Counted from the stretch's first letter, positions 30,093 through 60,486 are shown. The stretch: DNA of 64,000 nt from Opitutales bacterium (GCA_965226885.1 CBDDEL010000016.1:640001-704000), one strand, 5' to 3'. Notes: generated from the letters alone by a model not told the origin. Made by a program: numbers and translations.

Positions 30093-31933
30093 GAGGCTGT
30101 CCCAAAAATATAAAGATTTTATAGTCAACTGGATGACGTTGATAAAAAGAGCCGGAAAGAGCAAGTTTTTGCTCGATCCGGCCAAAAAAGGGTTCTATAA
30201 TTGAGTTAGCGAAAATCAATATAGCCCTTTCTATGAAAAATATAGCCATCCAATGCCTCCTGCGTCCAGCTTTAACTGTGGTCGACCGGTGCCTCGATTA
30301 CGATAACTTCCGCGCCACCATTGATCGAATCGATCGGCTGCTGATCGACTCGGAGGTGGAATCGCAGGCCATTGAGCTGGCCTTGGAGGGGTGGCCGCCA
30401 ATGGGTCTAAAGGCCCGGCGGCAGCGGGCCAGTTTTGCCATCAAGGCACTGCGCATGGATACGCTGGGCCGTCTGCTCGGAGGGATTTCGTTTCGGCATT
30501 TGTCGCGGGCTCTGGGCAGCAGCGATCTGTTGGCCGACTTTTGCCGTGTCCGGCAGATCGATGGCATCAGGGGCATCTCCAAAAGCACCCTGGAGCGGGC
30601 CTCGAAGTTTTTCAGCGAAGAGCAGTTGAGGGCCTTGCACCGGACCTTGACTGAGGTGGTGGGCGATGCCCTTCTGGCCCGGCAGGTGGGATTGGACAAG
30701 CCGATTGACACCACCATTTGCCTGATCGACGGCACCTGTTTGGAGGCTAACATTCATTGGCCGACGGACTGGGTATTACTCAAGGATGTAGCCGGCACGT
30801 TGCTCAAAGCGATCCGGCTGATCCGCGAGAAGGCCGGTTTGCGCCATCGCATGCCGATCGAACCGGAGCCCTTGGCTCGGCAGATGAATCGGCTGTGCAT
30901 ACAGATGACCCACAGCCGGCGGCGAAAGGACAGCGCGCGGCAGCGCAAGGGTATCTTGAGGCAGATGAAAAAGCTGCTCAAACGGATCGGGGAGCATGCC
31001 CGCAGTCACCGGGAATTATTGCAAGCCTGCTGGGAGCAAAGCGATTACAGCGAAAAACAGGTCCAACAGATCCTCGCCCGGATGGAGCGCATGAGCGAGC
31101 AAATCCCGGTGGTCATCAAACAGGCGCACGAGCGGATCATTGGCGGCCGCCAGGTGAAAAACGCAGAGAAAGTCTTGAGTGTTTACGAACTCGATGGGCA
31201 GGTGATTGTGCGAGGTAAAGCGGGCCAAGAGGTCGAGTTCGGCAACACCCTGTTTTTGGGAGAAAGCGTTGAAGGGTACCTGCTGGACTGGAAACTCTAC
31301 GGCAGCCGAACTCCAAGCGAAAATGAACAAATGCAAGAGAGTTTGCAAAGACAGAACCGCTTCAACCTGGAAGAACCCATAGCGGCCATGTGCGCGGACC
31401 GGGGATTTGCCTCCCAGCGGGCCCGCCGGCAGTTAGCCCAGGAGGGAATCTACGACGCGCTCTGTCCACGCGATCCGAAGCAGTTGAAAAAACGGATGGA
31501 GGAACCACTGTTCAGACAATTGCAAAAGCGCCGGGCCAGCACCGAAGGGCGGATCGGGGTATTGAAGAATCGCTGGCAGGCCGGGCGGTTGCGCAGCAAA
31601 GGCTTTGCCAACCGCTCGATCAGCGTAGCCTGGTCGGTACTCTCGCACAACCCCTGGTCGGTACTCTCGCACAACCTATGGAAAGTAGCCAAGATGCTGG
31701 CCCAGCAAGACGAACTAAAAACCAAAGCGGCGGCCTAGAGAGCGGAAAAGCAAGGACAATACTTTTTCACAGCCTTACTGTCGGCTCATACAAAGAAAAT
31801 CAGGCAACCGGACCCCAAAACCAGTATCCTAACGTCATAGGAGAGCAAAGTTGATACTCTCCCAAATGCAAATACCTCTAAAATGAGCGCCTATCAAAAG
31901 CCCTCGCAAAAATCACCCTTTTGGGACAGCCTC
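30093..31933 (+). mobile_element. ISNCY (ISDol1-like)/IS5-related element copy 1 (transposase 30233..31738)
   Basis: TIR GAGGCTGTCCCAAAA, AT-rich target duplication TAATGTA, DDE motifs (DGTCLEANIHWPTD, ADRGF, RASTEGRI). The family label is an inference. Confidence 0.88.
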
Positions 31934-33421: not shown

Positions 33422-35272
33422 ATGTGTGGTATATTTGCTTATGTGGGTAGGCATAAGGCAGGGGGAATCCTTCTGGAAGGCCTCAAGCGATTGGAATATC
33501 GGGGTTACGACTCCGCCGGCCTGGCCGTGGCCGAAAAGGATAAACTGCGGATTATCAAAAAGAAAGGGCGAGTAAAAGTCGTCGCGGCGAAAGTCCGCAA
33601 GGCGCGTTTAACGGCAGTCATGGGCATCAGCCACACCCGATGGGCCACCCACGGCGATGTCAACGACGTAAACGCCCACCCCCACCTCAGCGACGACTCG
33701 AAAATCGCTCTGGCTCATAATGGGGTGATCGAGAATTACGAATCAATAAAAAAATTCCTGCTCAGCCGCGACCACAGTTTCCAATCCGAAACCGATACCG
33801 AAGTGCTGACCAACTTGATCGCCTACCATTACGCCAAAGAACCTCGCGAAGAGGGCAAAAACCGCTTTTTGGAAAGTGTGCGCAAAAGCCTTCACCACCT
33901 GGAAGGGACCTACGGAATCGCCGTGATCTGCGCCGATTGCCCCCATCAAATTGTGGGGGCAAGAAAAGGCTCCCCCCTCGTCTTAGGCATCGGCAACGGG
34001 GAAAATATGATTTCCAGCGATGTCTCCGCTTTTGCCGGGCGAACCCAGAATGTCGTTTATCTAGATGATGGACAGGTGGTTTCCATTACGCGGGACGACT
34101 TTTCGGTCACCACCATAATGGACGAAAGCGTCCAGCCGATCATCAACCGGGTGGATTGGGAAATCGAAGAATCCGTCCTGGGCTCATTTTCCCATTACAT
34201 GGAAAAGGAGATTTTCGAGCAGCCCACATCGCTCGAAAACACCATGCGAGGGCGCTTTTCCGATGACGGTTCGACAGCCAAATTTGGCGGATTGAACATC
34301 GAAGCACGCGATTTGCGGCAAATCGACCGCATCCTTTTCTGCGCCTGTGGGACCGCCTGGCATGCCTGCCTGGTGGCCGAATACCTGATCGAACGCTACG
34401 CCCGTCTGCCAGTGGAAGTCGAATATGCCTCCGAGTTTCGCTACCGCAACGCCCCTCTGGATAGAAACACCCTCATATTCGTCATCAGCCAGAGCGGCGA
34501 AACGATCGATACCCTGGAGGCCCTGCGGGAGTCCAAACGAAAAGGCTTTCGCACCCTCGCATTCACCAATGTCGTCGGCTCGACCATTGCCCGGGAAACC
34601 GATGGTGGCATTTACCAACACGCCGGACCCGAAATCGGGGTCGCCTCCACCAAGGCATTCACCTCGCAAATCCTCCTCGCCGCGATGGTGGCGCTATACC
34701 TCGGCCGGCTCCGAGATCTCAGCTTCAACGACGGGGTGGAAATCGTCAATGCCCTCAAAAAAACGCCCGGCCTGGTCAGCCAGATACTCGATCAAACGGA
34801 AAAAATCAAAACCATCGCGGAAAAATACGCGGATTGCCGGGATTTCCTCTTTCTGGGACGTCAACTGATGTTTCCGATGGCCCTGGAAGGCGCCCTCAAA
34901 CTGAAGGAAATCTCCTACATCCACGCCGAAGGCTACCCGGCGGCGGAAATGAAACACGGCCCCATCGCCCTCATCGGCCCCCAATGCCCCACCGTATATA
35001 TTGCCCCGAAAGGTGATATATTTAAGAAAAACCTGACCAATATCCAGGAGATCAAAGCCCGCAAAGGACCCATCATCGCCATCACATCCGCCCGAGAAGA
35101 ATTTCCCCAGGATCTGGCCGACGATATCATATACATCCCCCAAAGCCATGAATGCGTAACCCCCATTCTGGCCGCAATACCCCTGCAATTACTGGCCTAC
35201 TACATCGCCCGCCACCGAGGTTGCGACGTGGATAAACCCCGCAACCTGGCCAAATCCGTCACCGTGGAATAA
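33422..35272 (+). CDS. glmS: Glutamine-fructose-6-phosphate aminotransferase
   Basis: MCGI start, HTRWATHG, SQSGET, C-terminal PRNLAKSVTVE. Confidence 0.99.
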   Translation: MCGIFAYVGRHKAGGILLEGLKRLEYRGYDSAGLAVAEKDKLRIIKKKGRVKVVAAKVRKARLTAVMGISHTRWATHGDVNDVNAHPHLSDDSKIALAHNGVIENYESIKKFLLSRDHSFQSETDTEVLTNLIAYHYAKEPREEGKNRFLESVRKSLHHLEGTYGIAVICADCPHQIVGARKGSPLVLGIGNGENMISSDVSAFAGRTQNVVYLDDGQVVSITRDDFSVTTIMDESVQPIINRVDWEIEESVLGSFSHYMEKEIFEQPTSLENTMRGRFSDDGSTAKFGGLNIEARDLRQIDRILFCACGTAWHACLVAEYLIERYARLPVEVEYASEFRYRNAPLDRNTLIFVISQSGETIDTLEALRESKRKGFRTLAFTNVVGSTIARETDGGIYQHAGPEIGVASTKAFTSQILLAAMVALYLGRLRDLSFNDGVEIVNALKKTPGLVSQILDQTEKIKTIAEKYADCRDFLFLGRQLMFPMALEGALKLKEISYIHAEGYPAAEMKHGPIALIGPQCPTVYIAPKGDIFKKNLTNIQEIKARKGPIIAITSAREEFPQDLADDIIYIPQSHECVTPILAAIPLQLLAYYIARHRGCDVDKPRNLAKSVTVE

Positions 35273-35295
35273 AAGAAATACTCTTCCGGTGCTGG

Positions 35296-35390
35296 TGTAG
35301 ACGGACAATAAAGTAGTATCCTGGACAATATAAATGTAACCTGGACAATAAACTTGGAAACTGGCCACTCTGCGCCGGACAATAAAGTCT
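35296..35390 (+). repeat. Tn7 right-end-like terminus with TnsB-binding repeats
   Basis: TGTAGACG followed by GGACAATA(AAGT) at 35303, 35323, 35343 (20-bp period) and 35377; closely resembles Tn7R TGTGGGCGGACAATAAAGTC. The preceding GCTGG (35291-35295) is the predicted 5-bp TSD. Confidence 0.92.
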
Positions 35391-35434
35391 GCCCCCGTCC
35401 TCGCCAAATCGCGGAATGAACGCAACTTGTTGAA

Positions 35435-36097
35435 TCATAAAGGATTCCGATGATCTCCCAGGATACGTTCAACCTCTGAGGAATCCCCGACTCGGTAGTC
35501 AACGGCCAAGTTTGCAACCGCCGTCTGCCATTCCATCCCGAAGACAAGGGCCATCGCCGCATCGCGGAGAGATTCCTGCGATCCGATGTCTAGTCGCTTC
35601 AAATACTTCCTGCTGCGCAGCTTCGGTTCCAAACAAGCCAGCAATACGATATCGAAATCGAACGATTTCGCCACGATGACACCCAACCGACGGATTGCCT
35701 CGGGCTGCGGTTTCCTCAATTTGACGTTTTTTGGAAGTTCTCCTTTCGGTGCATCCGGAACGTAATCTGGCTGAAGCTGAAATGACCCCTTCTCCACGTC
35801 ATCGATGGTAATCTCTGGGCGAATCGGGCGCAATTTACGCCCTAGTTCTCTGGCTGCCTCGCTGATCTCGGACTCATCTCTGAACCCGGCTTCCACTTCT
35901 GCCCACTCCAATCGCACCATAACCTTTTCCGTTAGCTGGCGATCGCCTCTGTTTACCAACATAAGTAAGGATGTGCTGACCCTCAGTTTCCTCGCCATTT
36001 GAGGCCATGTTAGTTCTTCCGTTTTCTTAAGTCGCCTCAATCGCTCGGAATGGTTGGAGGGATTTTTTTTCCGTATTTCCATCTTTTTATTTGACAT
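35435..36097 (-). CDS. Xre/Cro-type HTH protein with uncharacterised C-terminal domain
   Basis: N-terminal RLRRLKKTEELTWPQMARKLRVSTSLLMLVNRGDRQLT fits HTH_XRE; about 150 further residues are unassigned. Confidence 0.75.
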   Translation of the reverse strand: MSNKKMEIRKKNPSNHSERLRRLKKTEELTWPQMARKLRVSTSLLMLVNRGDRQLTEKVMVRLEWAEVEAGFRDESEISEAARELGRKLRPIRPEITIDDVEKGSFQLQPDYVPDAPKGELPKNVKLRKPQPEAIRRLGVIVAKSFDFDIVLLACLEPKLRSRKYLKRLDIGSQESLRDAAMALVFGMEWQTAVANLAVDYRVGDSSEVERILGDHRNPL

Positions 36098-36188
36098 TTG
36101 ACATTTGACAATAGCTATAATATATAGTTTTATACAGCTTATAACGGGTAAATTTATACTAATTTATATATATTCTGTAGCTATTATA

Positions 36189-37993
36189 GAGGCTGTCCCA
36201 AAAATATAAAGATTTTATAGTCAACTGGATGACGTTGATAAAAAGAGCCGGAAAGAGCAAGTTTTTGCTCGATCCGGCCAAAAAAGGGTTCTATAATTGA
36301 GTTAGCGAAAATCAATATAGCCCTTTCTATGAAAAATATAGCCATCCAATGCCTCCTGCGTCCAGCTTTAACTGTGGTCGACCGGTGCCTCGATTACGAT
36401 AACTTCCGCGCCACCATTGATCGAATCGATCGGCTGCTGATCGACTCGGAGGTGGAATCGCAGGCCATTGAGCTGGCCTTGGAGGGGTGGCCGCCAATGG
36501 GTCTAAAGGCCCGGCGGCAGCGGGCCAGTTTTGCCATCAAGGCACTGCGCATGGATACGCTGGGCCGTCTGCTCGGAGGGATTTCGTTTCGGCATTTGTC
36601 GCGGGCTCTGGGCAGCAGCGATCTGTTGGCCGACTTTTGCCGTGTCCGGCAGATCGATGGCATCAGGGGCATCTCCAAAAGCACCCTGGAGCGGGCCTCG
36701 AAGTTTTTCAGCGAAGAGCAGTTGAGGGCCTTGCACCGGACCTTGACTGAGGTGGTGGGCGATGCCCTTCTGGGCCGGCAGGTGGGATTGGACAAGCCGA
36801 TTGACACCACCATTTGCCTGATCGACGGCACCTGTTTGGAGGCTAACATTCATTGGCCGACGGACTGGGTATTACTCAAGGATGTAGCCGGCACGTTGCT
36901 CAAAGCGATCCGGCTGATCCGCGAGAAGGCCGGTTTGCGCCATCGCATGCCGATCGAACCGGAGCCCTTGGCTCGGCAGATGACCCACAGCCGGCGGCGA
37001 AAGGACAGCGCGCGGCAGCGCAAGGGTATCTTGAGGCAGATGAAAAAGCTGCTCAAACGGATCGGGGAGCATGCCCGCAGTCACCGGGAATTATTGCAAG
37101 CCTGCTGGGAGCAAAGCGATTACAGCGAAAAACAGGTCCAACAGATCCTCGCCCGGATGGAGCGCATGAGCGAGCAAATCCCGGTGGTCATCAAACAGGC
37201 GCACGAGCGGATCATTGGCGGCCGCCAGGTGAAAAACGCAGAGAAAGTCTTGAGTGTTTACGAACTCGATGGGCAGGTGATTGTGCGAGGTAAAGCGGGC
37301 CAAGAGGTCGAGTTCGGCAACACCCTGTTTTTGGGAGAAAGCGTTGAAGGGTACCTGCTGGACTGGAAACTCTACGGCAGCCGAACTCCAAGCGAAAATG
37401 AACAAATGCAAGAGAGTTTGCAAAGACAGAACCGCTTCAACCTGGAAGAACCCATAGCGGCCATGTGCGCGGACCGGGGATTTGCCTCCCAGCGGGCCCG
37501 CCGGCAGTTAGCCCAGGAGGGAATCTACGACGCGCTCTGTCCACGCGATCCGAAGCAGTTGAAAAAACGGATGGAGGAACCACTGTTCAGACAATTGCAA
37601 AAGCGCCGGGCCAGCACCGAAGGGCGGATCGGGGGGATCGGGGTATTGAAGAATCGCTGGCAGGCCGGGCGGTTGCGCAGCAAAGGCTTTGCCAACCGCT
37701 CGATCAGCGTAGCCTGGTCGGTACTCTCGCACAACCTATGGAAAGTAGCCAAGATGCTGGCCCAGCAAGACGAACTAAAAACCAAAGCGGCGGCCTAGAG
37801 AGCGGAAAAGCAAGGACAATACTTTTTCACAGCCGTACTGTCGGCTCATACAAAGAAAACCAGGCAACCGGACCCCAAAACCAGTATCCTAACGTCATAG
37901 GAGAGCAAAGTTGATACTCTCCCAAATGCAAATACCTCTAAAATGAGCGCCTATCAAAAGCCCTCGCAAAAATCACCCTTTTTGGACAGCCTC
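36189..37993 (+). mobile_element. ISNCY/IS5-related element copy 2 (transposase 36329..37798) in the xre-tnsA intergenic region
   Basis: Near-identical to 30093-31933; same TIR; flanked by (T/C)ATTATA. Confidence 0.88.
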
Positions 37994-38053
37994 CATTATA
38001 GGACTTTTGCGAGCTTAATTTTTAATCATCCAAATTTTAAACCTTTAAACCCC

Positions 38054-38906
38054 ATGCCCAAACGCAAAAGAGAGACCACCGCTACGACTATAGAGAAACG
38101 GATTTCCGAGGGGCGCGGGCAAGGTCGGGGAGCCGCTTACACGCCGTGGCTCAATATCCACGATGTCGGCTCCAATGGAGTGTCTAGTCGAATCAACGGC
38201 TGGACGACGTCCTGGATCCACCATCTCCTCAGTCGGGGGGAAACTGCAAACTTTTATGTTTTCGACTACGCGAAGCAAGTTGTCGACATTCGGGAGCAAT
38301 TTCCCCTTTTACCAATTGAAAAAACGATTGCCATCGCTGAACGATTGGGAGTTCGACACCCATCCGACCCAAAAACTCGAAGTCCGGTGGTGATGACGAC
38401 GGATTTTTTGCTCACGATCGGGAATGGACTAAATGAGACTGAAGTGGCGCGCACCGTGAAACCTTCCAATGAGCTCGCGTCCTCTCGGGTTCGCGTCCTC
38501 TCGGGTCATTGAAAAGTTTGCCATCGAACTGGAGTATTGGAAGGCCAGAAAGACCAATTGGGGCATCATTTGTGAAGATCGGGTAACCCAGACGGTCGCC
38601 CGGAATATTGAATGGGTGCACAATTTTCGCGATCTTCCAGAAGGCCTGTCTCTGGCTGAAAAAGGGCTCGAGCAAATCGAAACCTTCCTCATTCCATTGA
38701 TATCTTCTAAAACGGCACCTTCACGAGCTACTTCAGAATGCGACGACAGACTCGGATTGGAGCCGGGAACGGCCCTCTCAGCCGTCCGGCATTTTATCGC
38801 GACTCGTCGCTGGGCTGTGAAGATGACCCGGCGCATCGATCCGACCTCTCCACTGATTTTCACTAAAACGCCCGTGCCAGCCAAGAATACTGCGGCTGCA
38901 GCCTGA
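38054..38906 (+). pseudogene. tnsA: TnsA endonuclease, frameshifted by a 16-bp tandem duplication
   Basis: EGRGQG.G..Y.PWL, HHLLS..E, DIREQFPL, VMTTDFL and EKFAIELEYW motifs; TCGCGTCCTCTCGGGT occurs twice at 38475-38506. Confidence 0.93.
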
Positions 38907-38913
38907 TTGCCCC

Positions 38914-41900
38914 ATGAATCTCATCGTTAACATGACACTCGAATGGTCCGATTCCGAGGGCGAAAAACATATCGATCGGGTACTAGAGATCACGCCCGAC
39001 CGAGTTGTTCTGTTCGAAATCTCCGATCCAAACGCTTTTCCTAGATTTCATCCAAAATCCGAAATTCTTGATGCAATTGAGCGCAAGTATTGCACGCTTC
39101 TGCCCCCCGTTTCGTCTCCACAATTACTTCGCCGTGAAGAGTCAATCCCAAAACATCATCGCGAGCGTCGCGACCTTGCTTGGGAGATCATCAAAGTTAT
39201 CATCGAAGCTCCAAACTATGGGACGTTTGATGCCGAAATTCGTGGGAAAATAATTCGTGAAGCTGTGGCGCGTACTGGTAAATCGAAGAAGACAATTTAC
39301 AAGTACTTAAGGAAATACTGGCGCTACGGTTGCGCGAAAAATGCTTTGCTTCCATGTTTCCACAAATGTGGAGGAAAAGGGAAATTACGGACTCCCGGTG
39401 AAAAAAAACGGGGGCGGCAGAACCAGACCCGAAGGGCCATGGGAGTTCAGGATGGGATTAATATTGGCCCAGAAGAAAAGGACAAAATTCGTCAAGGCAT
39501 CAAACGGTTCCATGACAATCCCAGATTAAGAGGGAAATACACGTTGGAAGAAGCTTACAATCGGACGTTGGGAGACTTTTTTCATATTCGTTATGATTTA
39601 ATCGATGATCTAATGGTCCCAGTATTACCGCCTGTTAATGAGCTTCCTTCGTTCCGACAGTTCAAGTATGTATATTACAAGGACAGAGACCTTTCGATTA
39701 CTTTGATAGCTCGTAAAGGCCAAAGGCGCTTCAACCTAAACCGTCGAGCCGTCATTGGCGATTCCTCTAACCCGGATATTTCATGAAGGGTAAAGTTTGG
39801 CTCGTTATTGCTATTGGAGATGGATTTCTTTGTATTTTGAGCAGATCGTCTTGATTTTTAGGTGTTTTTCAGGGTGTAGAGACACTGCCCCCTTTCCCCC
39901 ATTGGTTCGGTAGTGCCGGGGGCAGCACCAATGCACCCTTTAGGTTGGCACCAATCGGCGGGCCGCATGGTTGAAAAGACTGGCCCAAGGATAACTCTCA
40001 CTTAGGTGAAAGTGAATCGTTCGGGTGTTGCGCACGATGACCGCTCCGATCTTGATTAATTTGAGCCGCAGGGTGTGGCATTGGGCCCGCGCCCACTTCG
40101 TCCCTTTTAAGGCTAACCGGCGCATGGCTTCCATCAAGGTGTAGGCCAGCGCCGACAAGAGCAATCGCCACTGATTGGCCCACCATTGATGGGCGCTGGT
40201 GCGCTCGCTGAACAATTGCATCTGTTCCTTGATTCGGTTCTCCATTTCACCGCGGCCACAGTATACCTTGTCGTAAAGCTCCTGGGGATCGCCCGGCAGG
40301 TTCGTCACCACGAAGCGCGGGTTGGACCCCTGTGTGGTGTGTTCGGCTTTATGGATGACCAACCGCAGCCATCGCCACGAATCGGCAGCATAGACGAAGT
40401 CCTGGAATAACCGTTGTTTTTTACCCCTTAGTTCGAACCATTCTTTGGCCTGCTTTTGCAACTGCTGGGCGTCTTGCTGCAAGCGTGCATTGCGAGCCAT
40501 CCCCACGATGTAACTAACTTCGTTGCGGTCGCACCAAGAGAGTATCCGGTCTCGACAAAATCCACTGTCGGCGCGCCAAATAATCCGCTTACGGGGCCAG
40601 CTTTGGCGAATCCGTTTAACCAGCAATTTGAGGATGGCCCCGGCATGCTTGCTGGCATCGATCTTGCTCGGCCGCAGGTAGGCCACCAGCAGCTGATCAC
40701 CGCAAAAAACATATAGCGGCAGAAAACAGTAATGATCATAATAACCGTGGAAAAAACGTCCCTCCTGGAGCCCGTGCACCGGATTGTCGGTGGCGTCAAA
40801 GTCCAGGATGATCTCTTCGGGTTCCTCGGCAAAGGAGCCCATGAACTGTTCGACCAACAGCTCGTTTACCGCAAAGGCCGCCCGCCGATCCTGCCCGTTT
40901 TCAAAACGACACAAAGTCGGCGCGCTGGCCAACGTTTCAATGCGCCCCGTTACCGTTTGCAACAATGGATCGTGGCGCAGGGTATCAAAGTCGTTTAAAT
41001 CCTCATAGCCCGCCACCAGCCCGTAAACGCGCTGCCGCAGCATCCCCAAGACCTCATGGCGTACTTTGCCCTTCTGCCGTTTGTCCACTAACTGTCGGGC
41101 CGCTCGTTCGGTCAAGCCCAACTGCCGATCCACTTCCCGGATCAAAAGCAGTCCGGCATCCGAAGTAACCTCTCCGCCCTTGAAATCAACCCGCACACGG
41201 CGGCCTTTTACCCTTGTCAACTGTAGCTTTAATTGTTTACCTTTTGTCATCGCTGATATTGCTTTAATTATTGATCTATCCTGCTGTATATCAGCAGTTA
41301 AGCATATCAACGATACTTTTTTTACGAAATATCCGGGCTAAGACTGTATTCGGCCCCGGTTGCGTTTACCAAATCGATGCCACTAATTCGGATATATACC
41401 TTGTCGGTTCCTTGGACCGAAAGAGAATAATCGGCCGCCCGACTCTTTACTTTCTTGTGGATGTATTTTCCCGATCGATCGTGGGCTTCAATGTTACCAC
41501 CGAAAATGCAAGCTATTTAGCGGCGGCACTGGCCATCGAAAACGCGGCTTCGGACAAAGTCGGATTCTGTGAACGTCACGGTATCACGATTTCGAGGGAG
41601 GATTGGCCCTGTCAACATCTACCAGAATGCATCGTCGCCGACCGGGGTGAATTAGAGGGTCCCAAGGCCGATACTCTGATAAACAGTCTGAATATAAAAT
41701 TGGATAATACCCCGCCTTACCGAGCCGATCTTAAGGGACTCGTGGAGAGAAACTTCCGAACAGTGAATGATAATATCATTCATTGGCTTCCCGGTCACGT
41801 AAAGAAAAACCGCGAGCGAGGGGATCGAGATCACCGACTCGATGCCGTTTTGGATCTCCAGCAATTTACCAAACTCATTATCCACTTTATCCTCGATTAC

Positions 41901-42662
41901 AATCGGTCTTGGTTGAACAACTATCGTCCAGACGAGCACATGATAGCCGACCAACTGGAACCGAGGCCAACAATGCTTTGGGAGTGGGGGATTATAAATC
42001 GTTCCGGGTATCTGCGCCAAATGGATCCAGACCTGCTGCGAATGAACCTGCTGCCCTCGGCAAAAGCTACGGTCACACCAAAAGGTATCCGTTTCCAAAA
42101 AGTTTTCTACGCCTGCGAAAGGGCCATTAAAAAGCAGTGGTTTGTTCGCGCTCGTACCACTGGTACATGGAAAGTCGACATTGCCTATGATCCCAGGAGC
42201 GTGGACTTTATCTATCTCCGCCCGGACGGCAACACACCTCCCGAAGCATGCAAACTTGTGGATCCTGACCAGCGTTTCCATGGCCGTGCCTGGATCGAAC
42301 TCCACGAGCAGGTTCAGGTCCAAAAAATACAAAAGGAAATCGCAGCAACGAGCGATCGCCAGTCGGGAACTGAATTTCGCGCTAAGGTCAATGTCATCGT
42401 CTCTTCGGCTGAAGAGCAAACCGCAGCCGATCAGACCGGACAGAGCAAACGTGCCCGTGTTGGTGGAATTCGTGCCAACCGGAAGGCGGCGCGCGAACAT
42501 GAACGCCGACTCGCTGTTGCACCAGGACCGTTAGAGAAAGAAGAGCTGAGCGAAGATATTGACCCAGAGGAGTCGCAAGAACCGGGCGACGATTCTTACA
42601 TCCCGCCTCCGTCACAACTGAAACTGCTGGTAACCCATCAGGAAGAACAATGGAAAAAATAG
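38914..42662 (+). pseudogene. tnsB: TnsB DDE transposase interrupted by IS1380
   Basis: YLRKYWRYG..NALLP; GPG..YQIDAT, VDVFSR, ADRGE and KGLVE motifs. Removing the IS and one CTAA gives the in-frame junction GDSSKTVFGPG. Confidence 0.93.
39771..41337 (-). mobile_element. IS1380 variant A copy 2 (transposase 41250..39940)
   Basis: 1567 bp, TIRs, 4-bp target duplication CTAA. Confidence 0.96.
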
Positions 42663-44227
42663 TGAGTATGCCGATCGATCCTCCGCCATTCGAAGTTTTC
42701 TCTGGCCACCGCGAACCGGCTTCCTACCGCGATCCACTCATTCCCATCTATAAAGGCAATCCCCTGATTGAAGCGCTTCCCCCAATCCTCAGTCCGGACG
42801 AGATCTGCCGCGCTCTGGCAAGTTATCCTGAGTATTCAGATGCAGATCGAAGTTATCCGGGACATTTGCGTCTACACATGATTTCAAATACGCTCCAATT
42901 CTTCGCTCCACTGTCCATCCATATTGATTTGGAACAACGAATTTCGCGAATGATCCGCTCCGGTTACCAGGCCCGAAATCCATTGGCACGGAATCATTGG
43001 AAAGAGCTGGATGGTCGAGTTCAGGCAATTCGCCAGTCATCAATACCAAAACCTGTTTATCGATCAACTGCCACCGGCTTTGCAATCATCGGAATTTCAG
43101 GTGAGGGTAAGACAATTGCCATGGAGCAAAATCTGAATCTTTACCCGCAAGTTATTGACCACAGCAGTTATCACGATATTTCGTTTAACCGTACCCAGGT
43201 CGTATGGCTTAAGTTGGCTTGCCCGTTTGATGGCTCGATCAAAGGACTCTGCCTTAATTTTTTTCAATCGTTGGATTTCATTCTCGGAACCGACTATTAT
43301 CACGAATATTCCAGTAGCCGGAGAAAGACAGTTGATGAGCTTCTACCCGCCATGTCGCGAATCGCGTCGATCCATTCTATCGGCGTGCTCGTAATTGACG
43401 AAATCCAACATTTGTGTGTAAGCAAGTCCGGCGGTGCGGAGAAAATGCTGAATTTCTTCGTCCAGCTGATCAACACCATCGGATTGCCCGTCGTTCTTAT
43501 CGGCACATATAAGGCCGAGCCCATGCTGTCCGCTGAATTTCGTCAGATTCGCCGCGGTTCTGGCCAGGGAGAAATGCGCTGGGACCGGATGCGCAATGAC
43601 GAGGAGTGGCGGTATTTTCTGAAAGCCTTATGGCGTTACCAGTACACGCGAGAAGTCGTCCCGCTAACCGAGGAACTCGGTTGCGCATTGTATGAGGAAT
43701 GCCAGGGAATATTGGATCTCGCGGTCAAGATGTACATGCTGGCGCAGGTTAGGGCAATTACCACCGAAAAAGAACGCGTAACGCCCGGGATAATCCGTTC
43801 GGTGGCCATTGATTCTTTCAAAATGGCTCAACCCGTTTTGAAAGCCCTCCGTACCGGAGACACCATGGCCCTGCGCTTATTAAATGATGTTTATCCGGTT
43901 GAAATCGACCGTGAAATTCAGAGGGAACAACAAAATGTTGCGACTACTAGAGCAATAGCATCAGCCAGTCCAAACGGATCCCATACAGCCAGAAACCCGG
44001 TCCAAACCGAAACCTCAAGTGCTCGCCCCGAATCACCAGTTAACCGTTCTCCCAAGAAGCCTCGACGCATATCCAAACGCGCCAAGCGAAAGAAAAAGCC
44101 CGTTCCGCCAGGTAGTCTAATGGCGATTGTAGCCGACGGCGAAGCAGAAGGTTTATCTCCATTCGACGCGTTGAAAGCAAACGGCTTCATCAAATCAGCA
44201 ATTGAATTCCTCGACGACGTGGCATGA
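42650..44227 (+). CDS. tnsC: TnsC AAA+ regulator (intact)
   Basis: GNPLIEALP, GYQARNP, Walker A GISGEGKT, Walker B LVIDEIQ, RQIRR; Lys-rich linker and C-terminal FDALKANGFIK resembling the TnsA-interacting tail. Confidence 0.93.
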   Translation: MEKIVSMPIDPPPFEVFSGHREPASYRDPLIPIYKGNPLIEALPPILSPDEICRALASYPEYSDADRSYPGHLRLHMISNTLQFFAPLSIHIDLEQRISRMIRSGYQARNPLARNHWKELDGRVQAIRQSSIPKPVYRSTATGFAIIGISGEGKTIAMEQNLNLYPQVIDHSSYHDISFNRTQVVWLKLACPFDGSIKGLCLNFFQSLDFILGTDYYHEYSSSRRKTVDELLPAMSRIASIHSIGVLVIDEIQHLCVSKSGGAEKMLNFFVQLINTIGLPVVLIGTYKAEPMLSAEFRQIRRGSGQGEMRWDRMRNDEEWRYFLKALWRYQYTREVVPLTEELGCALYEECQGILDLAVKMYMLAQVRAITTEKERVTPGIIRSVAIDSFKMAQPVLKALRTGDTMALRLLNDVYPVEIDREIQREQQNVATTRAIASASPNGSHTARNPVQTETSSARPESPVNRSPKKPRRISKRAKRKKKPVPPGSLMAIVADGEAEGLSPFDALKANGFIKSAIEFLDDVA

Positions 44228-46199
44228 TAGGATACTTCCCAAGCCCTTACCCCGACGAGCTATTCTACAGCGTCTGCGCACGCTTTGGCGATCGGATGCA
44301 ATTCCCCACCACCGGCGGGGTAATGCATGCGCTGTTCGGACGTCGCCATGCCGTGGCCGTTGTCGATCTGCCTAACCATCTGAAACAAATCGTAACCTCG
44401 CTTCCTCCGGGTAACCCCTACACCGTTGAAGGTATCATTTCAAATCACACCCTCTTCCCGTATTACGCGCCATTCATCAACTCGAACGCGAGGGAGTCCA
44501 TTCGAGGGTTCATGCGAACAAGTGATGATGCCTCCGTACGCGCACGGTGCGGTATCTGCACCAATCGCGTAAAGCCGCCCCGACATTTCCGATCCTGCCC
44601 CCTTTGCGACGCTGAAAACCTGGAAAAATACGATGAAACGTATTGGCACCGGCTCTTTCAGGTAACCGGTGTCGAGATTTGTCCGAGACACGAAATCATT
44701 CTCAATACCTCCGACATCCGCTTTCATCCCCAAGCCACTCGGCACCGATTCTTTTCAGCGGAAACCGCTGGACTGATGACCGCGACGAAGTCGATCGCTC
44801 CCACCGATTCCATCCAACAAGTCTTATTGCAACTGGCCAAAGACATCGAATGGATTTTGTCCCATCCCGATTTAGTTTCCGACCTGGATTCCATTCGTAA
44901 TCGCTACGTCGAACTGTTGCAACAGCGATCACTGGCGACAAAAAGCGGATACATCCGCCTCCGTGAGTTGATTTCCCAATTCCGGGCGCACTTCTCACCG
45001 GAAATATTGGATTTGCTTCAGTCTCCCGTACCCCAGGACAAGTCCAATGTCTGGCTCGCCCGTATGCTGAGACCTTCGAGAAACATGATGGCTCCATTGC
45101 GCCACCTGCTTTTGATGAATTTTCTGCAGGTCTCCCCAGAACATTTCTTTTACCCCGACCGCGCCCGTTCATTGGGAACGGCGAGGCGAGAAAAAAAGGG
45201 TCCATGGCTATGCTTGAATCGCGTCTGTCGGCATTTCAAGCAACCGGCCATCACGAAATATGAGCTCCAATACGATCGCAAACGGCGCATTGACATCGGC
45301 ATTTTCACATGTCCTGAATGCGCATACACTTATGGCCTGCACCATTGGGAGAAACCGGCAGTCAAACCAGATTTTGTCCGCACTCGCGGGAAGAGGTGGG
45401 ATGTACGATTGAAGGAGCTATGGCGCGACAAACGCCTCACACTGCGTCAGATCGCCGCCACCCTCGGCGTTGACCCGAAAACAGTCAAACAGCACGCTCA
45501 TTTTCAAGAATTGTCCTTTCCACGCCCGGGGGTTCGCCCGACCAAGAGAGAGGGAATCTATACGCCTCGGGCGCGAAAGAAATATACGCCTCGGGCGCGA
45601 AAGAAAGGGCGCGAAAGAAAACTTATACGGTAAAATCCCAGCGCGCCGCCTGGTTAAACCTGCGCAAAGCAAATCCGGACAAGGGTACGAAACAGCTTCG
45701 AACCATCGACCGCGGGATCTACTCTTGGTTATACCAGCATGACCGCACCTGGCTGAAAACCCACTTGCCACCGCACGCTCAGACCTTCTCTCCTCGATCA
45801 ATGGTCGACTGGGCCGCGCGCGACGAAAAACTCGTCATCAAGGTTGAAAAAATTGCCCAAATTGCCCGTCAGCTAAGCATCCGCCCCGGAAAACTCCGCC
45901 GTATCACCCGTAATGCAATCGGGCGAGAAATGGGAGACTGCGCTCTCCTCTCAAATGCCCTGCACAAAATGCCGCTCACCAAGGCGATGATTGAAACAGT
46001 CACCGAAACCTCGGAGACATTCGCCATCAGACGGATTCACCGCGCCGCTCAGCAATGTAACGGGACAAACGGCAAACTCGAGCGCTGGGAACTCGTCCGC
46101 GCCGCAGGTCTGCGCAAGGTGATCGAACTCCTGCCAACCGTGCAGGCCGCTCTGGAGGATGCATTGGCGCGTAGGGCCGGTAATCTCAGTTTAAACTAG
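44224..46199 (+). pseudogene. tnsD: TniQ/TnsD target selector, frameshifted by nested 24-bp and 14-bp duplications
   Basis: PYPDELFYS..AR, CPLC..YWHR..Q..GV..CP.H, PLRHLLL, second Cys cluster CLNRVC..CPEC, HTH, then YSWLYQHDRTWL..DW..RD in the shifted frame. Confidence 0.9.
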
Positions 46200-46495
46200 A
46201 GGCTGTCCCAGATTTGTAAGCAATTGGTATTTAGATACTTAAAGTCTATAAAAAACTGTTAACTTGACCGTTTTTAGACGATTTTCAGAAAAAAAGACCT
46301 CTATAACGACTTCATCCGCCTAAGAAGATGCAATGTTTGTTGCCATTATACCAAATTTTGCTTCCTGACGCGATCATGTTTATTACTAAAAGATGCCTTA
46401 TACAGCGCTTTTTGACGGGGTTGATGATTTACGCTCTCTTCCAATGCTGGGTCGAATATCTCATTTCTCAAAAATCACCCTTTGGGGACAGCCTC
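46199..46495. mobile_element. 297-bp non-autonomous MITE-like element with the ISNCY-type TIRs
   Basis: Ends GAGGCTGTCCCA ... AAAATCACCCTTTGGGGACAGCCTC match the ends of the elements at 30093 and 36189; AT-rich interior with no ORF in the track. Confidence 0.8.
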
Positions 46496-48718
46496 TAAAT
46501 TACAGCGGGCACGAAGAAGCCAGCGATCTGGGGGAGATCGGGACCGAGGCAGCAAAACCAAAGGAATGATCGTACACGATACGATGGCCTTTGATACGGA
46601 GGGATTGGCCCTGGGGCTGTTGGATGTGCAAAGCTGGGTGAGAGATCTCCAAGAGCCTCAAAAAGCGCAGAGAAAGAACAAGCCCCTCGAAGAGAAGGAG
46701 AGTTACAAATGGCTGCGCAGTTACGATGCGGTGGTGCAGGCGCAAAAGCAGGATGCGGGGAAGTTGTGGGTGAGCGTAGGGGATCGAGAAGCCGATATCT
46801 ATGAGCTCTTTGCCCATGCCCAAAAACAGGGAGAAGAGGGACCGAAGCTCTTAGCCCGGATATTTCGTAAAAAAAGTATCGTTGATATGCTTAACTGCTG
46901 ATATACAGCAGGATAGATCAATAATTAAAGCAATATCAGCGATGACAAAAGGTAAACAATTAAAGCTACAGTTGACAAGGGTAAAAGGCCGCCGTGTGCG
47001 GGTTGATTTCAAGGGCGGAGAGGTTACTTCGGATGCCGGACTGCTTTTGATCCGGGAAGTGGATCGGCAGTTGGGCTTGACCGAACGAGCGGCCCGACAG
47101 TTAGTGGACAAACGGCAGAAGGGCAAAGTACGCCATGAGGTCTTGGGGATGCTGCGGCAGCGCGTTTACGGGCTGGTGGCGGGCTATGAGGATTTGAACG
47201 ACTTTGATACCCTGCGCCACGATCCATTGTTGCAAACGGTAACGGGGCGCATTGAAACGTTGGCCAGCGCGCCGACTTTGTGTCGTTTTGAAAACGGGCA
47301 GGATCGGCGGGCGGCCTTTGCGGTAAACGAGCTGTTGGTCGAACAGTTCATGGGCTCCTTTGCCGAGGAACCCGAAGAGATCATCCTGGACTTTGACGCC
47401 ACCGACAATCCGGTGCACGGGCTCCAGGAGGGACGTTTTTTCCACGGTTATTATGATCATTACTGTTTTCTGCCGCTATATGTTTTTTGCGGTGATCAGC
47501 TGCTGGTGGCCTACCTGCGGCCGAGCAAGATCGATGCCAGCAAGCATGCCGGGGCCATCCTCAAATTGCTGGTTAAACGGATTCGCCAAAGCTGGCCCCG
47601 TACGCGGATTATTTGGCGCGCCGACAGTGGATTTTGTCGAGACCGGATACTCTCTTGGTGCGACCGCAACGAAGTTAGTTACATCGTGGGGATGGCTCGC
47701 AATGCACGCTTGCAGCAAGACGCCCAGCAGTTGCAAAAGCAGGCCAAAGAATGGTTCGAACTAAGGGGTAAAAAACAACGGTTATTCCAGGACTTCGTCT
47801 ATGCTGCCGATTCGTGGCGATGGCTGCGGTTGGTCATCCATAAAGCCGAACACACCGCACAGGGGTCCAACCCGCGCTTCGTGGTGACGAACCTGCCGGG
47901 CGATCCCCAGGAGCTTTACGACAAGGTATACTGTGGCCGCGGTGAAATGGAGAACCGAATCAAGGAACAGATGCAATTGTTCAGCGAGCGCACCAGCGCC
48001 CATCAATGGTGGGCCAATCAGTGGCGATTGCTCTTGTCGGCGCTGGCCTACACCTTGATGGAAGCCATGCGCCGGTTAGCCTTAAAAGGGACGAAGTGGC
48101 CGCGGGCCCAATGCCACACCCTGCGGCTCAAATTAATCAAGATCGGAGCGGTCATCGTGCGCAACACCCGAACGATTCACTTTCACCTAAGTGAGAGTTA
48201 TCCTTGGGCCAGTCTTTTCAACCATGCGGCCCGCCGATTGGTGCCAACCTAAAGGGTGCATTGGTGCTGCCCCCGGCACTACCGAACCAATGGGGGAAAG
48301 GGGGCAGTGTCTCTACACCCTGAAAAACACCTAAAAATCAAGACGATCTGCTCAAAATACAAAGAAATCCATCTCCAATAGCAATAACGAGCCAAACTTT
48401 ACCCTTCATGAAATATCCGGGTTAGTGCCCGCGACCCATAATCGCATTCTCAAAGAAGAGCAGGAAAAGCTCTGGGAGAGCCTGCAGAAGGAGGAGGTGG
48501 CGGGAACCCTACAGGTGCAAGTACCTCGAAAACCCGGACAGCCAAAGCGACGGGCCAGCCTGCAGATCCGCTATAAACAGGTCCTCCTGCAGGACCCGTG
48601 CAGGGGCGCGGGCAGAGCGTGCCAGTGTGGGCCGTCTATGCCCATGAAAACAATCCCCCCAAAGGGTGCAAGGCGCTTTCGTGGATGCTCCTCACCACGG
48701 TGCCTGTAAACGGTTTAG
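46496..48718 (+). pseudogene. IS4-family (IS50-like) transposase remnant, truncated at both ends and split by IS1380
   Basis: NYSGH, KGMIVHDT, EEKESYKWL, VGDREADIYELF; after the IS, HNR..VQVPRK and LSWMLLTTVPV; additional frameshifts. Confidence 0.85.
46855..48421 (+). mobile_element. IS1380 variant A copy 3 (transposase 46942..48252)
   Basis: 1567 bp, TIRs, target duplication TTAG. Confidence 0.96.
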
Positions 48719-50285
48719 CCCGGAAATTTCATAAAAAAAGTATCGCTGATATGCTTATCTGCTGATATACAGCAGGATAGATTAAACATTAAAGCAATAT
48801 CAGCGATGACAAAAAGTAAACAATTAGAACTACAGTTGACAAGGGTAAAAGGCCGCCGTGTGCGGGTTGATTTTAAGGGCGGTGAGGTTACTTCGGATGC
48901 CGGGCTGCTTTTGATCCGGGAAGTGGATCGGCGGTTGGGCTTGACCGAGCAAGCGGCCCGGCAATTAGTAGACAAACGGCAGAAGGGCAAAGTGCGCCAT
49001 GAGATGCTGGCCATGATCCGGCAGCGCGTTTACGGGCTGGTGGCGGGCTATGAGGATTTGAACGACTTTGACACCCTGCGCCGCGATCCTTTGTTGCAAA
49101 CGGTAACGGGGCGCACTGAAGCGTTGGCCAGCGCGCCGACTTTGTGTCGTTTTGAAAACGGGCAGGATCGGCGGGCAGCCTTTGCCCTGAACGAGTTGCT
49201 GGTCGAACAGTTCATCGGATCCTTTGCCGAGGAACCCGAAGAGATCATCCTAGACTTTGACGCCACCGACAATCCGGTGCACGGGCTCCAGGAGGGACGT
49301 TTTTTCCACGGTTATTATGATCATTACTGTTTTTTGCCGCTGTATGTTTTTTGCGGCGATCAGCTTCTGGTGGCCTACCTGCGGCCCAGCAAGATCGATG
49401 CGAGCAAGCATGCCGGGGCCATCCTCAAATTGCTGGTTAAACGGATTCGCCAAAGCTGGCCCCATACGCGGATTATTTGGCGTGCCGACAGCGGATTCTG
49501 CCGGGATCGGATTCTCTCGTGGTGCGAGCGCAACGAGGTTTATTTTATAGTGGGAACGGCCCGCCATGCACGCTTGCAGCAAGCGGCCCGGCAGTTGCAG
49601 GAGCAAGCCAAACAATGGTTCGAGGGTAGCGGCAAAAAGCAACGGCTGTTTCAGCACTTCGAGTATGGGCCAAAATCGTGGCGGCGCCAACGCCTTATCA
49701 TCCACAAAGCCGAACACACCGCACAGGGGTCCAACCCGCGCTTCGTGGTGACGAACCTGCAGGGCGATCCCCAAGAGCTTTACGACAAAGTATACTGTGG
49801 CCGCGGTGAGATGGAGAACCGGATCAAGGAACAGATGCAATTGTTCAGCGAACACACCAGCGCGCATAAATGGTGGGCCAACCAGTGGCGATTGCTCTTG
49901 TCGGGGCTGGCCTACACCTTGATGGAAGCCTTGCGCCGGTTCGCATTAAAAGGGACGAAGTGGGCGCGGCTCCAATGCCACAGTCTACGGCTAAAATTAA
50001 TCAAGATCGGAGCGGTAATCGTGCGCAACACCCGAACGATTCACTTTCATCTAAGTGAAAGTTATCCATGGGCCAGTCTTTTCAACCATGCGGCCCGCCG
50101 GTTGGTGCCAACCTAAAGGGCGCATTGGCGCTGCCCCCGGCGCTACCGAACCAATGGGGGAAAGGGGGAAGTGTCTCTACACCCTGAAAAACACCTCAAA
50201 ATCAAGACGATCCGCCCAAAATACAAAGAAATCCATCTCCAATAGCAATAACGAGCCAAACTTTACCCTTCATGAAATATCCGGG
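48719..50285 (+). mobile_element. IS1380 variant B copy 4 (transposase 48806..50116)
   Basis: 1567 bp, diverged variant (MTKSKQLEL); flanks TTAG/CTAG do not match. Confidence 0.96.
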
Positions 50286-51518: not shown

Positions 51519-51773
51519 TTATTTAAGTTGTTGAGCGCAGGCGGATTTTTGGCGGCTCGCCTTGTTGGGGTGGATGATGCTTCTCTTGGCCGCCTTGTCC
51601 AGAGCGGACACATAGACCCGGGCCGCCTCTTTGGCCGCCGCCGGATCGTCTCCGCCGCTGACCGAATTCCATTTTTTTTGCAAGGTTTTCAATCGGGTGC
51701 GGACCTGCCGGTTGTGTACCGTGCGCTTGGCGATGCGCCGGGTATCTTTCTTCGATGATTTTAAATTGGCCAT
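51519..51773 (-). CDS. rpsT: 30S ribosomal protein S20
   Basis: MANLKSSKK..N...LDKAAKRSIIHPNKASRQKS. Confidence 0.96.
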   Translation of the reverse strand: MANLKSSKKDTRRIAKRTVHNRQVRTRLKTLQKKWNSVSGGDDPAAAKEAARVYVSALDKAAKRSIIHPNKASRQKSACAQQLK

Positions 51774-52024
51774 AAAATGTTGGTATTGCTACTGTTTTAA
51801 TTAATTGAACTAGGTGGCTCCCTCGCCTGCATAGGCGGGAAAATGGCGGTTGCCTAAAAAATGGAAAAGGGAAAATGGGTCGGCTCCAGCCCCGCTGTCA
51901 ACAAACAAATGCGCTATTCCGTCATCCTTGTGCTAATGGAGCATGCTCGGAGCATGCTCAGGACAATGGAGCGCGGGAACCTAGCTTCATTTTCCATAAA
52001 AAGTAAAAATAGTCGGGCCGGTTT

Positions 52025-52445
<421 letters not shown>

Positions 52446-52778: not shown

Positions 52779-53192
52779 GCTAAACAAAGGCTGGCGCGAC
52801 GCTGGCGCGACTTGCTAAAATCATGAAAACGGTTGGCCTGATCGGCGGCATGAGCTGGGAATCCACCGCCGTTTACTACCGGCTCATGAATGAAGGCGTG
52901 CAAAAGCGCCTCGGAGGGCTCCACTCCGCTCAAATTCTCATGATCAGTCTGGATTTCGAAAAAATCGAACCCTTGCAAAGTGAAGGCCGTTGGGCGGAGG
53001 CGGCAAAAATATTGATCGACAGCGCAAAACGCCTCGAAGATGCCGGGGCGGATTTTCTGGCTCTATGCACCAACACAATGCACAAACTGACCGGAGAAGT
53101 CGCCGCAGCCGTCAATATCCCGCTCATTCACATTGCCGATGCCACGGCCGAGGCAATCCAATCGGCCGGCATGGAAACCGTCGGCCTTCTAG

Positions 53193-55569: not shown

Positions 55570-55990
55570 CTAGGCACCCGCTTCACCATGGAGGAAGATT
55601 TTTACAAAGGCCGATTGGCTCGAAACCACGGATTAAAAATCCTCGTTCCGACAAAGGAAAAAAGGGAAATCATTAACCGGGTCATCTATAATGAGCTCTG
55701 TCGCGGAAACATTGAGCAGGAGTCGAAAAAAGTTTTTCAGGAAATCATGCAAAATCTCCTCGATAACGGGGCCGAGGGAATTATCCTTGGCTGCACGGAA
55801 ATAGCGTTACTGGTCCCGCCGGATTCGTCAACCGCCAGATTATTCGACACCACACTCATTCACGCAAATAAGTTGGTAAGCAAAATATTAGAGGAATAGC
55901 CATTATCCGAGTCCGAAATCGAAGATGGTTCAATCTTTGACAAAAGCGGAAGACGACTCCGGAAATTCGGCCTGGGACGCCCCCAAAGAC

Positions 55991-58759: not shown

Positions 58760-58775
58760 TGCTGTTTTTCTCTGG

Positions 58776-58994
58776 TTATTGAATCGTTAGAAAGCGTTCA
58801 ATTTCTTGCCGGGGAATCAACTTGTGGCGCAACGTATTGTTGCAGCGCAATTCGCCTCTTTTTATAAGTCGGAAGACCGAGTGATAAGAGACGCCGAGGG
58901 TGGCGGCGGTTTCTTTAATCGAAAAGGCCATGCGCTCCACGTGTGGCGGCTGAAGGCTTCTGTCATTAGCTGGTTTCTTTATATTGGTCACCAC
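58776..58994 (-). CDS. Excisionase-like HTH DNA-binding protein
   Basis: AFSIKETAATLGVSYHSVFRLIKRGEL..LIPRQEIERFL; lies between integrase and primase. Confidence 0.82.
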   Translation of the reverse strand: MVTNIKKPANDRSLQPPHVERMAFSIKETAATLGVSYHSVFRLIKRGELRCNNTLRHKLIPRQEIERFLTIQ

Positions 58995-59208
58995 ATTAGC
59001 ACAAATACGATTTTGAGCGAGAGCAGAACTTGGGGGTTTATTTTTACTGCCCCTTTTTTCAGCTTTTACATGGAATCACATGTTCTTAATCATTGTATGA
59101 CAATACTTTGGATCATAGTAATCGACTCCATGTTCATCGTGGTATTTTACACAATAGGAAGTTGAGGGTATGTAATCGGATGTCCAATTCCTATGTAGTG
59201 ATTGCGCA

Positions 59209-60405: not shown

Positions 60406-60486
60406 GGGTTGAGTGTAGAAAAGGGGGTTAGAAAAAGTCAAAAAGAAAAGAAAACTCCATCATAAGTTTTTGAGTACCAACAAGAT

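Follow-up and report, generated by a model that had tools for sequence, protein, structure and literature searches.

A Tn7-Like TnsABCD Element beside glmS in an Opitutales Bacterium: A Probable Decayed, One-Ended Remnant

A Tn7-Like Element at the glmS Attachment Site

A 64,000-nucleotide stretch of an Opitutales genome (GCA_965226885.1, CBDDEL010000016.1:640001–704000), called the window below, carries a group of tns genes directly downstream of glmS. A reading made from the DNA alone (the sequence-only reading) had interpreted positions 35296–46199 as a complete, glmS-targeting Tn7-like transposon with just three precise, reversible defects, which could be fully reconstructed in silico. Does this locus hold a whole element, or only the part of one that has stayed beside glmS? 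The locus is a real Tn7-like TnsABCD element at the glmS attachment site, with its right end beside glmS. With a probability of roughly 0.9, we regard it as the glmS-proximal remnant of a Tn7-like cut-and-paste transposon, i.e., a decayed, one-ended, and immobile copy. Its breakage is recent and repeated, with more lesions than had been listed, and the element is an ordinary dead member of a large, well-known family.

Pfam searches of the fragment open reading frames (ORFs) along the locus matched TnsA_N/TnsA_C, Mu-transpos_C, AAA_22/TniB, and TniQ plus TnsD. The best solved-structure matches of the four proteins in the Protein Data Bank (PDB) are TnsA, TnsB, TnsC, and TnsD of E. coli Tn7, so the Tns family membership expected of the reconstructed genes was indeed obtained. 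All items of the sequence-only reading, i.e., the TGT terminus, the four repeat sites, tnsA-B-C-D, and three lesions, were recovered in the sequence. The gene junctions are short or overlapping, as had been described: tnsA stops at 38906 and tnsB starts at 38914, tnsB and tnsC overlap at 42650–42662, and tnsC and tnsD overlap at 44224–44227.

The attachment-site gene, glmS (33422–35272, + strand), encodes 616 amino acids with SIS (Pfam, 4.3e-51) and GATase domains, and its stop codon TAA occupies 35270–35272. A 23-bp spacer (35273–35295) separates it from the TGT terminus at 35296–35298, and TGTAGACGGACAATA begins at 35296. The last 5 bp of the spacer, GCTGG (35291–35295), would be the target duplication. 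The right end (35296–35390, + strand) comprises the terminal TGT and four GGACAATA-containing sites, which lie within about 90 bp at 35303, 35323, 35343, and 35377, with spacings of 20, 20, and 34. In the window, GGACAATA occurs 8 times, compared with 1.5 expected, and none of 100 shuffles reached 8. An array with identical spacing is also found at C4:22076–22164 and C17:873211–873299 in the source genome (G000), where contigs C4 and C17 hold further copies of the element (C4:12610–22164 and C17:864412–873299). The alignment of these copies with the window begins exactly at the TGT, with unrelated sequence on the other side, which fixes the terminus better than the motif alone. The terminus 23 bp past the glmS stop and its four sites thus lie where the sequence-only reading had placed them, with the clustered repeats on the tnsA side.

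The elements of this type lie in one orientation at a fixed distance downstream of glmS. This distance is 23 bp here, 24–25 bp at two metagenome loci (L098 and L101), and 26 and 27 bp in the same-genus genomes G003 and G004, respectively. In G004, the right end is followed by a homologue of ORF220 (the gene between the right end and tnsA in the window), tnsA, tnsB, tnsC, and a 637-residue tnsD, the last being 94% identical to the window read-through. In G003, a right end with a single site precedes an ORF220 homologue and tnsA. G001 has no such array after glmS; at this apparently empty site, glmS alone aligned in a synteny comparison. The contig of G002 ends at glmS. The same array after glmS in a relative lacking tns genes, which would speak against a transposon end, was not seen among these four genomes. 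In a 3′-end alignment of five same-genus genomes, the last ~36 nt of glmS are nearly invariant and the sequence diverges at once after the stop, as would be expected if the target selector reads the coding end.

Passages of PMC10293859 and PMC11014353 describe the recognition of the 3′ coding end of glmS by TnsD of Tn7. In the Tn7 paradigm, TnsD recruits TnsC, and TnsA and TnsB would then cut the element and paste it a fixed distance downstream of glmS. By family knowledge, TnsA and TnsB of the window element would be the transposase, TnsC the AAA+ adaptor, and TnsD the target selector, which by analogy would have bound the conserved glmS 3′ end. TnsD-directed insertion would have placed the element 23 bp past the glmS stop, with its right end toward glmS. 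Decay would have followed insertion, in a genome with hundreds of insertion sequence (IS) copies and many short tandem duplications. In this course of events, tnsA, tnsB, and tnsD would each have been broken, a further IS would have parted tnsA from its own upstream region, and the cargo (if any) and the left end beyond tnsD would have been lost or moved by a rearrangement with its breakpoint at the tnsD stop codon.

Truncation after tnsD and the Missing Left End

Beyond tnsC, BLAST homology continues to 46177 with G004 and to 46168 with the C4 copy. A base-level comparison with both places the last shared bases at ~46183, 1–3 nt past the position of the tnsD stop, whereas the G004 and C4 copies still resemble each other beyond this point. 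The end of sister-element homology is marked by a 297-bp miniature inverted-repeat transposable element (MITE; 46199–46495), which is flanked by TAAACTA and TAAATTA and has the same terminal repeats as IS-A, the IS upstream of tnsA described below. It is followed by an internal fragment of an IS4-family transposase gene (46503–46847, + strand; NCBIfam IS4 5.5e-26, profile positions 55–155 of 405), a second IS1380 (46855–48421, + strand), and a third IS1380-family copy (48719–50285, + strand; ~90% identical), after which chromosomal genes resume. The second IS1380 is 100% identical over 1577 nt to the IS1380 in tnsB and has the target duplication TTAG. Position 46199, which had been taken for the transposon end, is therefore the end of a gene and not of a transposon. 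No cas-like ORF occurs between tnsD and the chromosome; the ORFs there match transposase families or nothing, and the earlier statement that cas genes are absent stands.

No left end was found in the window, either as an inverted array or as the left-end motif with up to 3 mismatches; the sole motif hit lies inside the right end. The genome was searched for exact GGACAATA clusters, for the 18-mer terminus with up to 4 mismatches, and by BLAST with a 1.5-kb left-end region, and left ends were recognised by a TGT terminus plus three spaced repeats of a ACAATAAAGTTTGATAC-like site. By motif and BLAST, left ends are located at C4:22175, C17:873310, and C12:98053, with a partial one at C12:398444. 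None of them carries a GCTGG flank, and the inverted array ending in ACA and followed by GCTGG, for which a search had been suggested, was not found in the genome by these searches. The flanks of the C4/C17 left end and of the window right end disagree (GTAGT vs. GCTGG) and so do not support the former as the lost partner of the latter. Since the window holds no left end and homology stops at the tnsD stop, the proposal that the transposon can be fully reconstructed in silico fails for this locus, and the additional lesions described below add to this.

Lesions in the tns Genes

The TnsA endonuclease gene (tnsA, 38054–38906, + strand) is present and frameshifted. A 16-bp perfect tandem duplication (38475–38490/38491–38506) breaks it as precisely as had been reported, so that the frame as it stands stops at 38512 and PF08722 and PF08721 (TnsA_N and TnsA_C) match two separate fragments. 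When the duplication is read through, TnsA has 278 residues and no internal stop, and 266 of these 278 are identical to the C4 copy; TnsA of a sister copy matches E. coli Tn7 TnsA with 3e-36 (PDB). The ATG at 37943, which opens the ORF that had been called tnsA, falls inside IS-A, and the real start is 38054, which is common to the sister copies. Just upstream, a second perfect tandem duplication of 8 bp (TTTAAACC twice, 38036–38051) ends 2 bp before the tnsA ATG and is absent from the C4 copy, the alignment of which has 24 gap columns (8 + 16). Conserved columns of TnsA, TnsB, and TnsC were those conserved in at least 95% of 34–39 relatives. By this measure, the substitution R54W in TnsA is unique: at this column, at least 95% of 34 relatives have R, as do all of the sister copies (C4, G003, and G004). 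Three other apparently lost TnsA columns were rejected as lesions, since at least one sister copy has the same change or the sister copies vary there.

The DDE transposase gene, tnsB, is split by an IS1380 into a 5′ part (38914–39770, + strand; codons 1–285), which matches TnsB of relatives by tblastn with 41% identity and 1.5e-67, and a 3′ part (41338–42662, + strand), which encodes the candidate catalytic residues D298, D386, and E421 and the Mu-transposase C domain. The IS1380 (39771–41337, − strand; 1567 bp) has the features of its family: a 456-residue transposase (39940–41310; NCBIfam NF033539 3.6e-124, 414.6 bits against a cut-off of 180), inverted repeats that are 85% complementary over 20 nt, and the target duplication CTAA at 39767–39770 and 41338–41341. 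The 3′ part matches E. coli Tn7 TnsB with 2e-77 (PDB) and Mu-transpos_C with 6.7e-08; the rve match is below its cut-off, which an intact relative also fails to reach. Read through the insertion, TnsB has 725 residues, no internal stop, and all 48 of its 48 conserved columns. The IS1380 insertion described in the sequence-only reading is thus real and precise.

The tnsC gene (42650–44227, + strand) is an intact ORF of 525 residues with an AAA_22/TniB domain. TnsC matches E. coli Tn7 TnsC with 2.9e-87 (PDB) and keeps 49 of 49 conserved columns, including G151, G153, K154, D250, and E251. The target-selector gene, tnsD (44224–46199, + strand), encodes both TniQ (PF06527, 7.3e-21) and TnsD (PF15978, 5.2e-51) domains; TnsD of a sister copy matches Tn7 TnsD with 1.9e-31 (PDB). 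It is broken by 24 + 14 extra bases (45583–45620). A 24-bp unit is duplicated (45559–45582/45583–45606), and the final 14 bp of the unit are repeated once more, up to 45620 (14-bp repeat at 45593–45620); the sister copies have a single 24-bp unit. Restoration gives the ~645 residues that had been predicted, with no internal stop and with 41 of 41 invariant columns kept in a 21-sequence alignment. Furthermore, a 1-nt loss near 46182 has removed the native stop of tnsD, which is TAA in G004 and C4, and the frame runs five codons further to a TAG completed by the MITE.

Short tandem duplications account for several of these lesions. With Tandem Repeats Finder, perfect tandem repeats of two or three copies were found inside the element at 36090–36110, 38036–38051, 38475–38506, and 45559–45620, and elsewhere in the window at 31629–31676, 51938–51959, 52790–52811, and 62589–62612; four of the eight repeats in 64 kb thus fall in the 11-kb element.

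ORF220 and IS-A Upstream of tnsA

ORF220 (35435–36097, − strand; likely true start 36082) lies between the right end and tnsA and is divergent from tnsA. It encodes an XRE-type helix-turn-helix protein with a C-terminal domain that has no match. No Pfam match above the cut-off was found. The AlphaFold model (pLDDT 75.6) contains an N-terminal helical domain, of which the best matches are all XRE-type regulators, although weak (E ≥ 0.03); against the PDB, Foldseek gave no match at E ≤ 0.001, and the C-terminal domain of 120 residues is unmatched. A search of 5.8 billion proteins returned five homologues with 97, 61, 48, 46, and 45% identity, one of which is named an XRE-family regulator. A profile search identified eight metagenome loci. 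In four of them (L098, L101, L102, and L103), tnsA adjoins the ORF220-like gene, and in two of these the opposite flank of that gene holds a Tn7-like end and glmS; the remaining four contigs, three of which are shorter than 2 kb, show no tns or glmS match. An ORF220-type gene of 212–220 residues between the right end and tnsA is conserved in this Tn7-like subfamily and rare in databases. The three tandem copies of a 7-bp unit at 36090–36110 lie at the 5′ end of ORF220.

IS-A (36190–37994, + strand; 1805 bp) is inserted in the ORF220–tnsA intergenic region, 52 bp upstream of the tnsA ATG. It encodes a 489-residue transposase (36329–37798) and is flanked by a 7-bp direct repeat, ATTATAG, at 36183–36189 and 37995–38001. 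Its assignment as ISNCY/IS5-like rests on scores below the curated cut-offs (NF033593, 193.9 bits against 325; IS5, 108.8 against 275). In the C17 copy, the divergent intergenic region is 122 bp long and contains no IS-A.

Age of the Lesions

Contigs from four public runs (X19, X20, X22, and X23), which hold 39–87% of the sampled words of 38000–46250, were compared with the window at 34800–47000; word shares in marine, sponge, and sediment metagenome runs were small. A 606-nt contig of X22 joins 39766 to 41338 and skips exactly 1571 bp, i.e., the IS1380 and one CTAA. It shows 6 differences, compared with 77 for the C4 paralogue over the same stretch, and therefore represents window-type tnsB without the IS, the empty site that precise insertion implies. 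Both the 8-bp and the 16-bp duplications are absent from contigs of X22 (2 differences), X23 (10), and X20 (17), whereas the paralogue has 34 differences. All four runs contain a contig that joins 36182 to 37995 and so lacks IS-A, and 14 bp are absent at 36089 in contigs of three runs (X20, X22, and X23). As the IS1380 in tnsB, the duplication in tnsA, and the IS upstream of it are all missing from contigs of related strains, those lesions are recent. The perfect identity of the IS1380 copies within and downstream of the tns genes likewise speaks for recency.

The idea of recent inactivation thus holds for tnsA, tnsB, and the upstream IS. For tnsD, contigs of X19, X22, and X23 with a joint at 45568–45607, which skip 38 bp, were considered as a duplication-free allele and rejected: all 28 of the 28 variant letters listed in their tnsC–tnsD region equal the C4 paralogue. 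Because these contigs are the paralogue, the 24 + 14-bp duplication is neither confirmed nor contradicted by independent contigs.

Other Copies in the Source Genome and Stacked Ends

In addition to the copies on C4, a 29.9-kb contig, and C17, the source genome contains a right-end remnant with part of ORF220 (C12:98054–100300). None of the three adjoins glmS. Between the C4 and C17 copies, identity is 99.2–99.98%; with the window copy, their identity is mosaic, with 97.6% at the right end and ORF220, 89% in tnsA and the start of tnsB, and 84.4% in the rest, which suggests recombination between copies. In the C4 copy, tnsA (278 residues), tnsC (525), and tnsD (637) are open, and tnsB has two frameshifts. 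The C17 copy shares this tnsB, and an IS interrupts its tnsC. The genome has only three TniQ/TnsD loci, and an intact tnsB is present in none of its three copies. The other copies therefore cannot rescue the window copy, and the family looks immobile in the source strain. In G004, tnsB is also disrupted (C4:8288–10680, locus L089): at the place of the frameshifts in the C4 and C17 copies of the source genome, it contains ~290 additional bp and changes frame. The window copy, the shared C4/C17 allele, and G004 each have tnsB broken by a different lesion.

Left and right ends stand back to back at several sites. In the source genome, the spacers are 10, 10, and 0 bp (C4:22164/22175, C17:873299/873310, and C12:98053/98054), and in G003 they are 10 and 9 bp (C430 and C393; loci L093 and L095). 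Moreover, CTAATT precedes the glmS-side right end of G003, and the same 6 bp follow one left end. These back-to-back ends fit insertions that were stacked at glmS and later moved. Passages of PMC11014353 indicate that target immunity would be expected to oppose such stacking.

A wider picture, possible yet on balance doubtful, is that of a genus-wide subfamily with two unusual habits, namely the possession of an ORF220-type gene and stacking at glmS. Its members would stack head-to-tail at glmS with 9–10-bp spacers despite target immunity, the second insertion landing 4–5 bp upstream of the resident right end, and IS-driven rearrangement would then scatter the stacks around the chromosome. As part of the same picture, the conserved XRE-type gene beside tnsA may act as a repressor of the element that carries it. 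If all this were true, naturally occurring, lesion-free alleles of individual genes in sister strains could be combined into a working element for Verrucomicrobiota.

Weighing of the Alternatives

A complete element at 35296–46199, with three defects and sufficient on its own for rebuilding an integrator, is very unlikely. The three lesions are indeed precise, and their removal yields open frames of 278, 725, and 645 residues in which the conserved columns of TnsB and TnsC and the invariant columns of TnsD are kept; the IS-free tnsB junction exists in nature, as predicted. Yet the homology with sister copies ends at the tnsD stop and no left end follows, so one would have to be borrowed from another copy, 84–98% identical. 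Further changes also set this locus apart from a three-lesion element, namely IS-A 52 bp before tnsA, the 8-bp duplication ahead of the ATG, R54W in TnsA, and the lost tnsD stop. Doubt could equally be directed at the lesions themselves, as contigs from all four runs lack IS-A and those from three lack the 8- and 16-bp duplications. The likelihood that these lesions are assembly errors is nevertheless practically negligible: a 1735-nt contig of X19 runs across 37995–38863 with 1 difference and 0 gaps, and so contains both duplications, while the contigs lacking them differ elsewhere too (2–17 letters) and hence represent other alleles or strains. IS-A and the IS1380 have, in addition, proper target duplications of 7 and 4 bp. 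It is also highly improbable that the window copy can still be mobilised in the cell by proteins supplied in trans by the other two copies. Open tnsA, tnsC, and tnsD genes on C4 and the intact tnsC of the window would favour it, but none of the three copies has an unbroken tnsB, that of the window being split by the IS1380 and those of C4 and C17 each having two frameshifts; the window copy is one-ended, and no TniQ/TnsD locus exists beyond the three.

Several points weigh against the interpretation of the locus as a dead, one-ended remnant. All conserved columns are kept in TnsB, TnsC, and TnsD, and apart from the listed lesions, the genes look as if they had been functional until recently. 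"Dead" applies to the window copy in the source strain only. IS-A may be polymorphic even within the source lineage, because the X19 contig without it, in which both the 8-bp and the 16-bp duplications are present, shows no other difference from the window. The binding of glmS by TnsD is extrapolated from Tn7, and the predicted target duplication GCTGG is seen on the right-end side only. Finally, the assembly in which motif and BLAST searches revealed no left end for this copy has 17 contigs and is 96% complete.

The biological weight of the locus is low, since Tn7-like elements that home to glmS are plentiful and their biology is well understood. To develop a site-specific integrator for a phylum of poor tractability is still a reasonable idea, but it requires a borrowed left end, more repairs than first listed, and a check of R54W. 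The remnant also illustrates neatly how a mobile element is taken apart by IS expansion and short tandem duplications over the divergence time of sister strains.

Genomic Surroundings

The 5.48-Mb source genome shows a massive IS expansion, with 227 near-full copies of IS1380 and 114 of the ISNCY/IS5-like IS-A (BLAST), as well as 16 near-full copies of the 0.3-kb MITE with the ends of the latter. Downstream of the third IS1380-family copy, the RNase P RNA (class A; 52020–52445, − strand; 196.8 bits) marks the return of the ordinary chromosome, and a short ORF at ~51540–51780 (− strand) is, by eye, a candidate for ribosomal protein S20. The glutamate racemase gene (52823–53239 and 55339–55899) is split by another IS1380 (53550–55400). 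Further on, an IS3-family transposase, a Toprim-domain protein (504 residues), and a tyrosine integrase (410 residues) occur together at 56054–60441 (− strand), possibly as another integrated element.

Comparison with Known Systems

Relatives of TnsD comprise 178 proteins at E ≤ 1e-5, nearly all with TniQ plus TnsD and mostly 620–680 residues long; where named, they are annotated as TnsD family Tn7-like transposition protein, TnsD family transposase, or TniQ family protein. The nearest TnsD outside the genus cluster is 46% identical, one 74% fragment excepted. In a quick IQ-TREE tree, TnsD of the genus forms a fully supported group, the neighbours of which are a Limisphaerales metagenome-assembled genome and an uncultured Verrucomicrobia contig. 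Together they are nested in a larger cyanobacterial, Chloroflexota, and Acidobacteriota group. The window element shares the TniQ plus TnsD architecture with TnsD-family elements of Verrucomicrobiota, Cyanobacteriota, Chloroflexota, and Acidobacteriota, many loci of which are glmS-linked: among loci identified with the TnsD profile, glmS lies upstream of tnsA in 24 of 66. An important difference is that tnsA of most glmS-linked relatives starts ~180–330 bp after glmS, which leaves no room for ORF220.

Islands of tandem Tn7-like elements at glmS were reportedly described by Parks and Peters in J Bacteriol in 2007. The back-to-back ends in the source genome and G003, 0–10 bp apart, resemble such stacked islands at attachment sites, but the stacks in the source genome no longer adjoin glmS. 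A further likeness concerns the regulator gene. Xre-family regulators are reported for type I-F3 CRISPR-associated Tn7-like transposons (bioRxiv 10.1101/2020.07.02.184150), which likewise encode a helix-turn-helix regulator inside the element. The likeness is one of gene type; cas genes are absent here, and ORF220 lies between the right end and tnsA and has a C-terminal 120-residue domain without a structural match.

The closest comparison is with Tn7 of E. coli, from which the window element differs in four respects. A Pfam search of the genome for TnsE gave no match, which is weak evidence, since control genomes gave none either; the sequence-only statement that tnsE is absent stands on this weak test. 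TnsD is longer here (637–645 residues), and only residues 4–299 match the 318-residue Tn7 TnsD chain in the PDB. An additional gene of XRE type separates the right end from tnsA, and the window copy is broken and one-ended. On the other hand, it has the same four proteins in the same gene order inward from the right end, the same TGT terminus with four clustered right-end sites and, at left ends of the family, three spaced sites, and an insertion site that likewise lies at a short, fixed distance beyond the glmS stop, the right end being nearest to glmS.

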